Virus record (IMG/VR): IMGVR_UViG_2671180710_000010
Span: 1-10,339 of that record
Direction: 5' to 3' (one strand)
Source: a virus
Lineage: Duplodnaviria > Heunggongvirae > Uroviricota > Caudoviricetes
DNA length: 10,339 nucleotides
Within the stretch, counting starts at the first letter, position 1, and every line of letters starts with the position of its first letter. Below are positions 2,097-6,045 of the stretch, piece by piece. The translations under genes were made by a program, and so were the position numbers. The notes below the pieces were generated by a model. It was not told the origin of the DNA and did not search any database. It saw only the letters and a program-made list of their open reading frames with translations.

Positions 2097-2925
2097 GGTT
2101 TACCCCCTTGCTGACTGGTTTAACCTGCGCCCTGACGTGATTTACGTGACGGGCGAATTTCTGCTCCCACTGAATCTGCGTAAACACTTTCCCCTCCGCT
2201 GCCCAGTAGTCCCGGAAGGCGGCAAGTTCAGCAGGTGTAAATTCTGTCTCCGGCAAAGCCATCCCCCACAACGCAGCCCGTCGTCGAAAATCCCGTGACG
2301 GATACCAGCTATCGGTCATCGGAAATTTTCCGATGGGTTCGCTCAGGCCATCCAGGAATACAAGGGGTGCTGCCTGTAACGACAAAACTTCCTGCTCACT
2401 GGTCGGAGCACTCTCGCGTGCGTTATGTGTGGGGTTTAGATCTTTGGGTTCCTTTGGGTTCCGTGATCCGTTTTTGGGTGTCTTTGATGGAAAATTTGGG
2501 TGTCTTTGGTTATTTTCCATGCAGCTAAGAGTTCCGTTTTTGGGTCTGTTTTGTGCTGAAACATAACCATTTTCGGTACTGTTTTTATTAACAGCACCAA
2601 TTTTACCCACCTTTAAAGACTCCCGTTTTTGGGTGTATTCAGGCTCGGCAACACTTTCTTCTACACCGATAAGTCGGTACACCACAATTTGCTTTGTTCT
2701 GCCTTTTCTCTCACCGGTATCAACAATTAACCCAATCTCCATCAGGTGTCGTAAGCTGTCCTGCACAGTCTTTTTGTTCAGTTCCGTTACTTCTGCCAGT
2801 GCAGATACAGACGGGTATGCACACAAATCGGCACCGCACATATCAGCAAGCCAAGTCAATACAGACTTACTGGATGAACTGCCGGTTTTCACCTTTTTAG
2901 CCCATCGTAGTGCATCGATACTCAT
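1885..2925 (-). CDS. Replication initiator (lambda O position): N-terminal HTH domain, central low-complexity linker encoded by the iterons, C-terminal DnaT-like region
   Basis: ORF is open 1885..3000. ATG at 2925 (MSIDALRWAKKVK...) has AGGGG 5 nt upstream and overlaps the upstream gene end by 29 nt. N-terminal HTH (LAEVTELNKKTVQDSLRHLMEIGLI), Pro/Lys/Asn-rich linker, C-terminal FTPAELAAFRDYWAAEGKVFTQIQWEQKFARHV. Position between the CII-position gene and the P-like gene. Confidence 0.65.
   Translation of the reverse strand: MSIDALRWAKKVKTGSSSSKSVLTWLADMCGADLCAYPSVSALAEVTELNKKTVQDSLRHLMEIGLIVDTGERKGRTKQIVVYRLIGVEESVAEPEYTQKRESLKVGKIGAVNKNSTENGYVSAQNRPKNGTLSCMENNQRHPNFPSKTPKNGSRNPKEPKDLNPTHNARESAPTSEQEVLSLQAAPLVFLDGLSEPIGKFPMTDSWYPSRDFRRRAALWGMALPETEFTPAELAAFRDYWAAEGKVFTQIQWEQKFARHVNHVRAQVKPVSKGVNHAAAPGGTASRAVQEIRAAREQWERENGFISDGNGLEAVGTHGGGLFEPLDPEERGRTFEALDCTDWRDD
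2441..2640. repeat. Iteron cluster plus AT-rich tract inside the O-like gene (putative replication origin)
   Basis: Same-orientation copies with a TTTGGGT core: CCGTTTTTGGGTGTCTTTG (2468-2486), AAAATTTGGGTGTCTTTGG (2491-2509), CCGTTTTTGGGTCTGTTTTG (2534-2553), CCGTTTTTGGGTGTATTC (2623-2640), plus tandem CTTTGGGTTCC x2 (2441-2462). AT-rich stretch 2554-2620. Same arrangement as ori-lambda inside gene O. Confidence 0.5.
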
Positions 2926-3448
2926 ACGAACCCCTGGCAGACATTTGTTTATCTGCAAAGTAATATTGATATTGCTGACGATACGCATGCTTGAAAGCAA
3001 TAGCTTTTTCTATAAGCTCGTCAGTCTCACGTTCCACAACAGATGGATCCGCAAAAAGCAGCCCGGACTCCACCACATCGCCATATTCTTTGTTTAACCC
3101 GGCGATCATGTACGTAATGCTTTTTCCGTCAGTAATTTCACAATACAACCTGAAATCGCTGATCCGGATAGCCTCCATAATTGCCGGAATCAGCGCCGTG
3201 AATTTTTCCCGCTTATCCCTGGTGTCGATAGCTTTCCAGCGTTCGAATATCTTCACCCGGTTAACGCCCAGCGCCCGTTGATCAACCTCGCCATCATTAA
3301 ACGTGACGCGTTGAACATCGATGTTCGGGCGTTCTTTCAGAGCCCAGAATGCTTCCGTGATTAATATCGTCGCCTGCTCCTGTGTCATTCCTGGTCGGCA
3401 TACCCAGGCATCCAGAGCCTCACAAACCTGTTCAGGGGTGATTTTCAT
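2897..3448 (-). CDS. YdaT-like regulator in the CII position (183 aa)
   Basis: ATG at 3448 overlaps the end of the cro-like gene by 17 nt. Motif TRDKREKFTALIPAIMEAI resembles the REK..LIPAI segment I recall in Rac YdaT. Position immediately downstream of cro-like and upstream of the replication genes. Confidence 0.45.
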   Translation of the reverse strand: MKITPEQVCEALDAWVCRPGMTQEQATILITEAFWALKERPNIDVQRVTFNDGEVDQRALGVNRVKIFERWKAIDTRDKREKFTALIPAIMEAIRISDFRLYCEITDGKSITYMIAGLNKEYGDVVESGLLFADPSVVERETDELIEKAIAFKHAYRQQYQYYFADKQMSARGSYEYRCTTMG

Positions 3449-3659
3449 TGTTCAACCGCCCCGCCCGCTTCGTCTTACGATATTCGTCATAAACTTTGGG
3501 ATCATACTGAAGCTCACCGCCAGATGCCTCCTGTAGACGCATCGCGCGACCTTCAGGAACCAGTTTCCCCCATGCAGCAACGCTTGCCAGCCTAACTCCT
3601 GCGGCATTGGCAAGCTTTGTTTTGCTGCCAAAAAACGCTATAGCATCAATTTTCAACAT
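3432..3659 (-). CDS. dicC: Cro-like repressor DicC
   Basis: 75 aa (MLKIDAIAFFGSKTKLANAAGVRLASVAAWGKLVPEGRAMRLQEASGGELQYDPKVYDEY...). AAGGAG SD 6 nt upstream of the ATG. Divergent from the dicA-like gene across a 76-bp operator region. Matches recalled DicC/YdaS-Cro family proteins. Confidence 0.8.
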   Translation of the reverse strand: MLKIDAIAFFGSKTKLANAAGVRLASVAAWGKLVPEGRAMRLQEASGGELQYDPKVYDEYRKTKRAGRLNNENHP

Positions 3660-3735
3660 ATCGAACTCCTTAGATTTTCCTAAGGAAACTAGATCGTAGA
3701 GAAACCTAAGTCAAGAAAAATTAGAATTACCTAAT
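3660..3735. promoter_or_regulatory. Divergent promoter/operator region between dicC and dicA
   Basis: Inverted repeat CCTTAG-N6-CTAAGG (3668-3685). AACCTAAG (3703-3710) overlaps a minus-strand -35 TTGACT (rc of 3709-3714). Plus-strand -10 TAGAAT (3722-3727) sits 8 nt before the dicA ATG, which has no SD. Confidence 0.6.
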
Positions 3736-4143
3736 ATGAAAAACGAAACCTTCGGTGCTCGCCTCTTATACAGGCGTAAAAAATTAAAACTGTCTCAGGC
3801 CGCATTAGGTAAGCTGGTCAAAGTGGCTCACGTAACAATTTCTCAATGGGAAAGAGATGAAACACAGCCAGCGGGGAAGAGATTATTCGCACTGAGCCAG
3901 GCGCTTCAGTGCTCGCCGACTTGGCTTCTTTTTGGAGATGAAGATAAGCAACCAGGCGAACCGATCCCAGATAATCAGCCAGTTAATCTGACAGAAGATC
4001 AAAAAGAGTTGCTTCAACTGTTCGACGCACTGCCTGAGTCAGAGCAAAAGGCTCTGTTGTCAGAGATGCGTGCTCGAGTTGAGAATTTCAACAAACTTTT
4101 TGAAGAACTACTCAAAGCTCGCAAAAGAAGCGCAAATAAATAA
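3736..4143 (+). CDS. dicA: Immunity repressor DicA (XRE-family HTH)
   Basis: 135 aa. N-terminal HTH (LSQAALGKLVKVAHVTISQWERDE). Motifs FALSQALQCSPTWLLFGDEDKQP and EMRARVENFNKLFEELLKARKR match my recollection of E. coli K-12 DicA, also 135 aa. Confidence 0.85.
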   Translation: MKNETFGARLLYRRKKLKLSQAALGKLVKVAHVTISQWERDETQPAGKRLFALSQALQCSPTWLLFGDEDKQPGEPIPDNQPVNLTEDQKELLQLFDALPESEQKALLSEMRARVENFNKLFEELLKARKRSANK

Positions 4144-4214
4144 CCCCCCCTTTTTTCGCCACTCTCTGTAATAAAAATCACAAACTTTCAAATGCTTGTG
4201 TTTTTTACATCAAA

Positions 4215-4271
4215 AAACTTAGGTTTTTCTACACAAAAAGCTTGACCACAATTCTTAGGTTATTCTAAATT
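4215..4271 (+). promoter_or_regulatory. Candidate promoter of the downstream ydfA-dicF-dicB operon with overlapping operator-like repeats
   Basis: -35 TTGACC (4242-4247), 18-nt spacer, -10 TAAATT (4266-4271). Two direct CTTAGGTT copies (4218-4225, 4254-4261), the reverse complement of AACCTAAG in the dicC-dicA intergenic region. Confidence 0.4.
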
Positions 4272-4347
4272 CTACTCATCAAGACACCGCACGGTGTTCT
4301 CAGCAAACAGTTCCGCTACCCTGGCGTTAAGGGGAAATGAGGTCAGC

Positions 4348-4500
4348 ATGGATACTATCGATCTTGGCAACAACGAATCTCTGGTATGCGGCGTGTTTCC
4401 CAACCAGGACGGCACGTTTACCGCGATGACGTATACCAAAAGTAAAAAGTTTAAAACCGAAGCTGGCGCGCGTCGCTGGTTAGCCAGAAACACTAACTGA
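4348..4500 (+). CDS. ydfA: Small protein YdfA-like (50 aa)
   Basis: ATG 4348 has GAGG 5 nt upstream; MDTIDLGNNESLVCGVFPNQDGTFTAMTYTKSKKFKTEAGARRWLARNTN. The listed ORF starts at GTG 4294 without an SD. Same position and size as K-12 Qin ydfA (51 aa, recalled). Confidence 0.55.
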   Translation: MDTIDLGNNESLVCGVFPNQDGTFTAMTYTKSKKFKTEAGARRWLARNTN

Positions 4501-4750
4501 TTAGCACCAGTAAAAACAGGTTGCCACTGGTTAATTTACCCTGAAAAGTCAGGGCATAACACGAAAGCGCACGGAGAAGCTCGTCTCTCTGTACTTTGTC
4601 GTTAAATTTAATTCGACCGTGCGCTTCCGGTTGTGGCAATCCGCGAAATGGCGCGGCGGTAAGTATGGCGGGGTTATTCCTTCCCCTTGAGGACACCGGG
4701 TTGTCAGGCTGACCATACGCTTAAGTGACAGCCCCGCCACAATATCCATG

Positions 4751-4803
4751 TGTAGTCTTTGGTGGCATCAGTTCTACTCCGTGACTGCTCTGCCACCCTT
4801 TTT
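4751..4803 (+). ncRNA. dicF: DicF small RNA (ftsZ-targeting sRNA of dicB operons)
   Basis: TTTGGTGGCATCAGTTCTACTCCGTGACTGCTCTGCCACCCTTTTT closely matches recalled K-12 DicF (..GGCGGUAUCAGUUUUACUCCGUGACUGCUCUGCCGCCCUUUUU). Ends in an intrinsic terminator. 5' end approximate. Confidence 0.7.
4761..4803 (+). terminator. Intrinsic terminator forming the DicF 3' end
   Basis: Perfect 7-bp stem GGTGGCA (4761-4767) / TGCCACC (4791-4797) with inner CAGT/ACTG pairing, followed by TTTTT (4799-4803). Confidence 0.65.
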
Positions 4804-5010
4804 AAAGTGAATTTTGTGATGCGGTGAATGCGGCTAAGCGCACGCGGAACAGTTAAAACCGTAAAGTGGTCTTTTACGGGGCGTAACGGGCATACTTCTG
4901 TATTCCGGCGTTAATTGTTAACTGGTTAACGTCACCTGGAGGCACCAGGCACTGCATCAACAAAGTTCACTTCGGTGATGAAAGGTAAGAGAAAATGTTG
5001 AATGTAGCTA

Positions 5011-5039
5011 TTGAAAACCAGAACGGGTGGAATTATAGT
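5011..5039 (+). promoter_or_regulatory. Near-consensus sigma70 promoter upstream of rha
   Basis: -35 TTGAAA (5011-5016), 17-nt spacer, -10 TATAGT (5034-5039). Predicted start near 5046. Confidence 0.4.
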
Positions 5040-5094
5040 GCACCTGCACCTCATAAAACGGGTGCCGGGATTGCTACCCCGATGTTCATCATGG

Positions 5095-5127
5095 CGCATA
5101 ACCGCGCTCAGGCGGTTTTTTTATGCG
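5095..5127 (+). terminator. Intrinsic terminator-like hairpin with U-tract
   Basis: Stem AACCGC (5100-5105) / GCGGTT (5112-5117), 6-nt loop, T-run 5116-5122. An alternative outer stem CGCATAA (5095-5101) / TTATGCG (5121-5127) is also possible. About 75 nt downstream of the predicted start. Confidence 0.5.
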
Positions 5128-5288
5128 TAATGCACAGCCACATTCAGATTATGGTGGGGCGTGCAGGGCAGCCGCAAGGCTGGCCGGGTTCCATGATGAC
5201 CGGTTGTAGCAACCCTGTGCGTCTCACCACCCATGAGATTGCTACCTCCGGTGGTGAGTTAATGAAATTCATCATGGAGGCTGCCATC

Positions 5289-5846
5289 ATGGCTACTATC
5301 CCTGCCCTTTCTCACCCTGAAATTACTATCGCCAATGGGCGTGCTGTTACATCCTCTTTAGCTGTTGCCGAGTATTTCCGGAAACCACACAAAGATGTAC
5401 TGGCAAAAATTTCACGTCTAGACTGTTCAGCGGAATTCACTGAGCGAAATTTTTCGCCCAGTGAATATACCGACTCAACCGGGCGCAAACTCCCTATGTA
5501 CCAAATCACCAAAAACGGCTTCGTTTTCCTGGTGATGGGCTTCACCGGCAAAAAAGCCGCTGCATTTAAAGAAGCCTACATCGCTGAGTTCGATCGCATG
5601 GAGAAAGAACTGCGCCAGAATAACGCCCCGTCTCCCGACAAAATGATTCACGGGGACGGACGTACCCTGGTTATCCGTCTCGACGAACACGGCAATATCA
5701 AATTCACTGAAACCGTTCCGGACGGCGCAATGGTCTGCACCCTGGATACCTTCCAGTTTTATCTGGAAAAACAAGGCTGGACTCTTGTAAACCGGAGCGC
5801 AATTAAAAATATGACTGTGGAGCAATTACTAAAAATTCATTGTTGA
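5289..5846 (+). CDS. rha: Phage regulatory protein Rha family
   Basis: ATG 5289 has GGAGG 8 nt upstream. N-terminus MATIPALSHPEITIANGRAVTSSLAVAEYFRKPHKDVLAKI fits the Rha N-terminal domain pattern. The listed ORF extends in frame to 4995, but that extension contains the promoter and terminator above and has atypical composition. Confidence 0.75.
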   Translation: MATIPALSHPEITIANGRAVTSSLAVAEYFRKPHKDVLAKISRLDCSAEFTERNFSPSEYTDSTGRKLPMYQITKNGFVFLVMGFTGKKAAAFKEAYIAEFDRMEKELRQNNAPSPDKMIHGDGRTLVIRLDEHGNIKFTETVPDGAMVCTLDTFQFYLEKQGWTLVNRSAIKNMTVEQLLKIHC

Positions 5847-5856
5847 GGACGCGATA

Positions 5857-6045
5857 ATGGAAACGTTATTACCAAACGTTAATACGTCTGAAGGGTGTTT
5901 TGATATTGGTGTTCTGCTCAGTAACCGGGAGTTTACTGAAGATGCCATTAAGATGAGAAAATATGAGCCTTATCTTCTCAATGATAATTCCATACTCTCC
6001 AGAATTGCCCTTCTTGAACTTGGTATTTTCGGGGGGCAGCAGTGA
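5857..6045 (+). CDS. dicB: Cell-division inhibitor DicB
   Basis: 62 aa, METLLPNVNTSEGCFDIGVLLSNREFTEDAIKMRK..., matching recalled K-12 DicB (MKTLLPNVNTSEGCFEIGV...; 62 aa). GAGGA SD 7 nt upstream. Downstream of dicF. Confidence 0.8.
   Translation: METLLPNVNTSEGCFDIGVLLSNREFTEDAIKMRKYEPYLLNDNSILSRIALLELGIFGGQQ

Follow-up and report, generated by a model that had tools for sequence, protein, structure and literature searches.

Candidate DicA operators on both sides of dicA in a Qin-like prophage

A short palindromic sequence recurs on both sides of the repressor gene dicA in the prophage DNA examined here, which raises the question of whether one repressor controls both the cro-side promoter and the promoter that drives ydfA, dicF, and dicB. 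The window (the whole stretch of DNA analyzed, 10,339 nucleotides of IMG/VR record IMGVR_UViG_2671180710_000010) is the early-left arm of a lambdoid, Qin-like prophage. Its minus strand carries replication genes, a ydaT-family gene (2897–3448), and dicC (3432–3659; called from the ORF list, NCBIfam, and Pfam), which encodes a Cro-like regulator of 75 amino acids. DicC scores 167.5 bits in a profile search against NCBIfam NF007282 (cutoff 130), matches Pfam P22_Cro, and shares 85% identity with K-12 DicC. Divergent from dicC across an intergenic region of 76 bp, dicA (3736–4143, plus strand) encodes a 135-aa helix-turn-helix repressor that lacks a peptidase domain. DicA scores 241.6 bits against NCBIfam NF007257 (cutoff 101) over its full length (residues 1–135), matches HTH_3 alone in Pfam, and is 63% identical to K-12 DicA. 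The plus strand continues with ydfA (DUF1391; 4348–4500; Pfam PF07151, 101.2 bits), the first gene of the repressed operon, and the DicF small RNA (4747–4798; Rfam RF00039, 61.1 bits, gathering score 48). These are followed by a 283-aa open reading frame with Rha and Ash domains (4995–5846, plus strand; the Rha-type gene), inside which matches to isrK RNA (5046–5122) and C4 RNA (5147–5234) are found, and by the cell-division inhibitor gene dicB (5857–6045, plus strand; Pfam DicB, 125.3 bits; NCBIfam NF049927, 111.4 bits, cutoff 100). A DUF1482 gene, a large exonuclease gene, xis, and int are listed after dicB on the same strand. The nearest complete E. coli genome is that of strain 7/2 (96.7% identity over 3400–4800), and the immunity region is 97% identical in the 'PPompW' prophages of Shiga-toxin E. 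coli.

The sequence-only reading had placed CCTTAG-ATTTTC-CTAAGG at 3668–3685 and AACCTAAG at 3703–3710, together with two copies of CTTAGGTT downstream of dicA (4218–4225 and 4254–4261), and every one of these coordinates is correct on direct reading of the sequence. On both strands of the window, CTTAGGTT has three matches against 0.20 expected, a count reached in 0 of 200 shuffles, and all three are confined to the dicC–dicA intergenic region and the region downstream of dicA. The 6-mer CCTAAG alone is not enriched in the window (4 occurrences against 2.77 expected), and thus the signal resides in the longer word. When up to two mismatches are allowed, CTTAGGTTNNTCTA has six matches against 0.49 expected, again with none of 200 shuffles reaching this number. 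These matches fall at five sites, because a palindrome is counted twice, and all are in the same two regions. The pattern TTAG-N6-CTAA with at most one mismatch (5 matches against 2.71 expected) likewise finds these five sites and nothing else. The copies reported earlier are therefore present, but the 8-mer is not the unit: each 8-mer is the stronger half of an imperfect dyad of 16 bp, xTTAG-N6-CTAAx. Three of the five dyads lie between dicC and dicA (Oc, Om, and Oa) and two at the promoter downstream of dicA (OL1 and OL2). Spacing is 25–26 bp in the upstream set and 36 bp in the downstream set, compared with about 24 bp for lambda operators, and about 550 bp separate the two clusters.

When a weight matrix is derived only from Oc, Om, and Oa, the next-best matches in the 10.3-kb window are OL1 and OL2, at 17.9 and 14.6 bits, respectively, and the top unrelated match reaches 8.5 bits. 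This check is not circular, because the downstream sites were left out of the matrix. A chance origin, with an AT-rich word recurring in intergenic DNA that is itself AT-rich, could draw on the counts of CCTAAG and of TTAG-N6-CTAA, which are not far from expectation. However, it is refuted by the 8-mer and 14-mer statistics, the cross-validated weight matrix, and the conservation in 57 of 57 related loci described below, and its probability is negligible. Searches by pattern and weight matrix found no operators elsewhere in the window, including the surroundings of dicF, the Rha-type gene, and int. The same holds for a third downstream operator, as the top remaining match in the whole window after the five sites scores 9.0 bits; the literature speaks of three operators per cluster, whereas only two are detectable downstream of dicA in this window.

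Downstream of dicA, the promoter scan predicts dicBp from a −35 element TTGACC (4242–4247, plus strand) and a −10 element TAAATT (4266–4271, plus strand), with an 18-nt spacer and 9 of 12 matches. The TTGACC hexamer has the same sequence and the same place in K-12. The CATC that follows the −10 element is invariant in 14 loci, and transcription from dicBp would likely start near A4278, inside this motif. OL1 (4218–4233, plus strand; CTTAGGTTTTTCTACA; 24.8 bits by weight matrix) starts 24 bp upstream of the −35 element. OL2 (4254–4269, plus strand; CTTAGGTTATTCTAAA) starts 12 bp past the start of the −35 element. The two copies had been described as flanking the promoter; they do lie around its −35 element, but they do more than flank it, as OL2 overlays the spacer and reaches four bases into the −10 element.

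Among the upstream sites, Oc (3669–3684, no strand assigned; CTTAGATTTTCCTAAG) is a perfect dyad within an extended 20-bp palindrome (3667–3686), and its position is that of K-12 Oc (TTGTTAGTCATAACTAACAA). Positioned immediately past the predicted dicC −10, Oc spans the likely start of dicC transcription, near 3679 on the minus strand, as well as part of the ribosome-binding site (CTCCTT on the plus strand, 3666–3671). The predicted dicC promoter has its −35 element, TTGACT, at 3709–3714 and its −10 element, TAGTTT, 17 nt away at 3686–3691, both on the minus strand. In minus-strand order, the region reads TTGACT, 17 nt, TAGTTT, one base, Oc, GAGTTCGAT, and ATG. We infer this promoter because its −10 element is weak and under the promoter-scan threshold. 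The geometry of the K-12 dicC promoter is alike (TTGACT-17-TATCTT), and AGTCAA in the dicC −35 region is nearly invariant in a 14-locus alignment. Om (3695–3710, minus strand; CTTAGGTTTCTCTACG) has zero mismatches to CTTAGGTTNNTCTA, scores 23.5 bits by weight matrix, and overlies the spacer of the dicC promoter together with the final 2 bp of its −35 element. The proximal half of Om (ACCTAAGT) persists in loci whose operators carry GTTAG half-sites too, and thus part of the conservation of Om may stem from the adjacent dicC −35.

The sequence-only reading had recognized two of the upstream sites, both of which stand, but had missed the third. This dyad, Oa (3720–3735, no strand assigned; ATTAGAATTACCTAAT; 17.5 bits), is perfect and abuts the dicA ATG. 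It includes TAGAAT (3722–3727), 8 nt before the ATG, no Shine-Dalgarno sequence is found at the dicA start, and the K-12 dicA mRNA is leaderless (PMC4681348, Fig. 2A). Taken together, these observations suggest that TAGAAT is the likely −10 of a leaderless dicA mRNA and that Oa most likely lies over the −10 and start of dicA, where transcription would begin at about 3734–3736. Oa hardly varies among loci whose DicA and DicC belong to different types. Of the five candidate operators it is the weakest, and it could be conserved simply as the −10/start block of dicA. A role for Oa as a DicC-preferred site, analogous to OR3, was considered and rejected, as co-variation gave it no support and Oa is near-identical across differing DicC recognition regions.

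The sequence-only reading had staked its proposal on the motif copies keeping their positions across homologous dicA loci, and they do so. The comparison covered K-12 Qin, further E. coli loci, ten loci that are intact in other enterobacterial species, and 240 IMG/VR loci, with two decayed copies (L012 and L013) left out. Among 57 non-identical loci of the same type from IMG/VR and genomes, the downstream pair is present in all 57 at a distance of 35–36 bp, and a TTGnnn hexamer lies between OL1 and OL2 in 56. Upstream, Oc is found in 57/57 of these loci, Om in 56/57, and Oa (with at most two mismatches) in 28/57. The layout extends to four other specificity types from eight genera: that of K-12 Qin, a second type with GTTAG half-sites, one from Yersinia, and one with TTGAG half-sites. 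In 12 of 12 loci that represent the five types, Oc starts 64–69 bp before the dicA ATG and OL1 and OL2 are 34–36 bp apart. In 11 of these, all but Yersinia, OL1 starts 24–25 bp before the −35 element and OL2 starts 11–12 bp after the start of this element.

Pairwise comparisons indicate where conservation is concentrated. Relative to Pantoea, the five operators are 88–100% identical (Om and OL2 both 100%), compared with 63% for dicC, 66–80% for dicA, and 25–50% for the spacers around the dicBp −35 element. Relative to E. coli RM8082, similar and divergent segments alternate: identity is 89% in dicC, 75% in Oc, 30% in the Oc–Om spacer, 88–100% from the proximal half of Om through Oa, 50% in codons 1–30 of dicA, 75% in OL1, 94% in OL2, and 97% in the ydfA leader.

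The half-sites that distinguish the types are matched between the two regions. CTTAG is found both upstream and downstream of dicA in this window, Pantoea, Enterobacter, and Erwinia; GTTAG(T/C)CAT in both regions of K-12 and relatives; GTTAG...CTAAC in both regions of the second type (E. ruysiae, E. albertii, Citrobacter, and Buttiauxella); and GTTAG/GTTAA in both regions of Yersinia. The fifth type has TTGAG-N4-CTCAA upstream, and TTGAG and CATGAG downstream. Between types, the half-site switches together in both regions with the −35 hexamers unchanged. A matrix of Oc sites against downstream regions is block-diagonal, with scores of 12–14 out of 16 within a type and mostly 9–12 between types; the exception is the Buttiauxella downstream region, which scores 13 once between types. 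The change can be as small as a single base, as OL2 reads CTTAGGTTATTCTAAA in the CTTAG type and GTTAGGTTATTCTAAA in the second GTTAG type.

These patterns bear on a reading in which the repeats are promoter-associated sequence, derived from common descent or from duplication of a promoter block, with no protein bound to them. The sites do overlap promoter elements: Oa holds a good −10, and the half of Om that adjoins the dicC −35 is conserved across specificity types. However, neither dyad symmetry nor a coordinated half-site switch next to constant −35 hexamers is expected from promoter function. Moreover, K-12 Oc is bound by DicA in vivo, and single-base changes in it abolish both binding and DicA-dependent repression (PMC3441716). 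This reading is very improbable.

The variable outer base of the half-site also co-varies with the repressor. The co-variation table includes 166 non-identical loci, of which a few rows are uncertain or miscalled. Across this table, loci whose DicA helix 2 is SQ(A/S)AL have CTTA(G/A) as the Oc half-site and (C/T/A)TTA(G/A) downstream, never GTTAG. Where helix 2 has TQR, every confidently called site carries GTTAG or, in one case, GTTAA. DicA proteins with SQN(D/G)LSK and the recognition helix VSGSSISLWE go with TTGAG and CATGAG. The DicC proteins are distributed differently: of the loci with the signature VRLASVAAW, 12 have CTTAG and 39 have GTTAG, and at least eight DicC signatures are represented among the loci with CTTAG operators. 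As one DicC signature is found with both half-sites, the outer base follows helix 2 of DicA and not DicC. The co-variation is the strongest protein-free evidence that DicA would read both clusters, although the 166 loci are not phylogenetically independent. Because dicA lies between Oc and the downstream sites, co-inheritance as one block could give part of this association without any function.

Alternatively, the sites may be primarily operators of the Cro-like DicC, with DicA acting elsewhere or only at Oc. In K-12, the strongest DicC ChIP-seq signal is at this locus, where sites are inferred on both flanks of dicA, and the palindromic motif derived from these data, TT(A/C/T)G...C(G/A/T)AA, fits the TTAG/CTAA core (PMC11430063). 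In addition, isolated K-12 Om and Oa are not bound by DicA (PMC3441716), and thus not every dyad need be a DicA site. Against this, the base that varies in the operators tracks DicA helix 2 rather than the DicC recognition region. The genetic evidence agrees: in the portion of PMC10448788 that cites Bejar 1988, deletion of dicA is described to derepress dicBp in K-12 22-fold, whereas deletion of dicC is described to have no effect. Control by DicC as the primary regulator is improbable. Joint use of the sites by DicA and DicC, as in lambda, is likelier, and the DicC reading is therefore more a complement than a rival; DicC very probably also binds these sites.

In our preferred explanation, the motif copies serve as operators for the repressor DicA. 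This short, CI-like protein with a helix-turn-helix would bind each 16-bp dyad xTTAG-N6-CTAAx as a dimer; we consider this reading to have a probability of about 0.85. For the five sites of the window, we infer binding by its own DicA from the co-variation and from the K-12 experiments. The earlier proposal that the repressor controls both the cro-side promoter and the ydfA-dicF-dicB promoter, in a split similar to OR and OL, is likewise supported by the conserved positions, the co-variation of half-sites with DicA, and the work on K-12.

For K-12 Qin, the OR/OL-like model is already published and accepted; what this window contributes is an allele whose half-site differs. Operators like those of lambda PR and PL are described for the dicA-dicC and dicA-dicBp regions of K-12 in the same portion of PMC10448788 (citing Bejar 1988). 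A Reg-Seq survey from 2020 lists the DicA site for dicB as low-evidence with its location unknown (PMC7567609), and the text of the Lally 2025 compendium mentions neither DicA nor DicC. With its DicA, divergent DicC, Oc, and like operators downstream at the ydfA-dicF-dicB promoter, the window appears to carry a Qin-type DicA/DicC immunity module. It shares with K-12 Qin the gene order (dicC, divergent dicA, dicBp, ydfA, dicF, and dicB), the TTAG-N6-CTAA core, a dyad that precedes the dicA ATG by about 59 bp, two dyads at 35–36 bp spacing around a TTGACC −35 element downstream of dicA, and a 135-aa repressor that has no cleavage domain and whose gene starts without a ribosome-binding site. In contrast, the half-site is CTTAG(G) in the window and GTTAG(T/C) in K-12, and helix 2 of DicA is SQAALGK in the window and TQRSLAK in K-12. 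Om of the window fits the consensus much better than K-12 Om. Finally, ydfB and ydfC are missing from the operon in the window, in which isrK, C4 RNA, and the Rha-type gene separate dicF from dicB.

A working model can be drawn from K-12, in which DicA represses dicBp and dicC, and DicC represses dicA. In the window, Oc (at the dicC start and ribosome-binding site) and Om (at the spacer and the edge of the −35 element) would together shut off dicC. Oa, situated at the dicA −10 and at the start of the leaderless mRNA, may mediate autorepression or DicC-mediated repression of dicA. At dicBp, OL1 would be occupied upstream of the −35 element, and DicA bound to OL2, over the spacer and the start of the −10 element, would exclude RNA polymerase. 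The downstream cluster would in this manner silence ydfA, DicF, the Rha-type gene, and dicB.

This arrangement resembles the action of CI/C2 and Cro at OR and OL of lambda and P22 in several respects. Two operator clusters flank the repressor gene, one acting on the divergent repressor and cro promoters and the other on the leftward early operon, the dyad operators overlap promoter hexamers, and the repressor mRNA is leaderless. However, both OR and OL are tripartite in lambda, whereas the window has three dyads upstream and two downstream. The window also differs from lambda in that the operon in the position of PL encodes cell-division inhibitors, not N and recombination functions. The repressors differ as well: the 135-aa DicA has a helix-turn-helix Pfam domain only and lacks the C-terminal S24 (LexA-like) autocleavage domain, and thus no RecA-driven cleavage is expected. 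K-12 DicA similarly has no Ala-Gly cleavage site, and induction in K-12 proceeds via the antirepressor Rem (PMC10448788).

The value of these results is mostly confirmatory, as the window is a textbook Qin-type immunity module. The gains are modest: the precise placement, in five specificity types, of two conserved dyads around the −35 and at the −10 of dicBp, and a simple, testable specificity rule that separates reading by DicA from reading by DicC. Under this rule, a single helix-2 position of DicA, Ala23 in this window, could read C before TTAG when it is Ala/Ser and G when it is Arg, with the recognition helix (AHVTISQWE) identical. IMG genomes 2778261068, 2617270997, and 2869924733 each carry several DicA-type prophages, whose types may coincide or differ. 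It is possible, albeit speculative, that DicA types differ by this single protein-base contact and that co-resident prophages form a partly cross-reactive repressor network. If so, the DicA of one prophage would help to silence the cell-division inhibitors of another. The rule may be of use in predicting cross-immunity among the many DicA-type prophages of pathogenic E. coli that control the division inhibitors DicB and DicF.

Two other features of the region downstream of dicA are of minor interest. A weak hairpin followed by a T-run (4172–4207, plus strand), just before OL1, is a weak, low-confidence candidate for a dicA terminator. Its folding energy is −6.8 kcal/mol, and the scan puts the same stem on the minus strand. 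The fold is significant in the window (z −3.27) but not in K-12 or Pantoea, in which the hairpin is not clearly conserved. The conserved 5′ leader of ydfA (4274–4350) was considered as a structured element, such as a nut-like hairpin, and this candidate was rejected because it folds no better than shuffled sequences (z −0.03). The leader is 96–97% conserved within E. coli, apparently as the margin of a flanking block that the loci share.

The repressor gene dicA (3736-4143, + strand) lacks a ribosome-binding site upstream of its ATG, where the motif TAGAAT lies 8 nt before the start codon (region 3720-3736). At this position, every locus in a 14-locus alignment carries TAGAAT, TAGCAT, or TAAGAT. 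The combination of these two features in the window implies that the dicA mRNA would be leaderless, as is the lambda cI mRNA transcribed from PRM. Published transcription-start data for K-12 agree with this reading (PMC4681348).

The segment between the dicA stop codon and OL1, a predicted operator (4218-4233) at the promoter dicBp, contains a hairpin that is preceded by an A-run and followed by a T-run (4172-4207; dG -6.8, z -3.27). This element is possibly a weak terminator and may act in both directions. The terminator-like element has no clear conservation in K-12 or Pantoea. Further downstream, the 5' leader of ydfA (4274-4347), which includes a small hairpin (CACCG-CA-CGGTG), shares 96-97% identity among E. 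coli loci that differ in immunity type. The predicted fold of this leader showed no gain over shuffled sequence (z -0.03), and the conservation therefore probably marks the edge of an exchangeable immunity cassette rather than an RNA element.

The predicted DicA-repressed operon also contains a 283-aa ORF with Ash and Rha domains (4995-5846). The 5' third of this ORF harbors Rfam matches to isrK (5046-5122; 65.5 bits) and to C4 antisense RNA (5147-5234; 77.9 bits), and the Pfam Ash match spans residues 14-109. The Ash match may represent translated RNA genes, and the true coding sequence may start later. This region looks like an antirepressor module of the P1 immI-like or Gifsy isrK type that was inserted between dicF and dicB, which places the candidate module within the operon that DicA is predicted to repress. 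An antirepressor at this location would provide positive feedback upon derepression. On the other side of dicA, the end of the Cro-like gene dicC shares 17 bp with a ydaT-family gene (2897-3448; Pfam YdaT_toxin, 26.5 bits), which holds the position that cII occupies in lambda.

Among the comparison loci, two or three distinct DicA-type loci were found within single IMG genomes (L128 and L192; L116, L130, and L159; L048 and L052). By operator half-site type, genome 2778261068 has one TTGAG-type and one GTTAG-type locus, all three loci of genome 2617270997 are of the TTGAG type, and both loci of genome 2869924733 are of the CTTAG type. Given such co-occurrence, a single repressor pool may act on several co-resident prophages. 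Finally, the loci from E. coli ECMA0423 (L012) and Shigella flexneri SFBU0723 (L013) are decayed versions of the DicA module, in which dicA is disrupted by stop codons and frameshifts and the operators are partly degraded.
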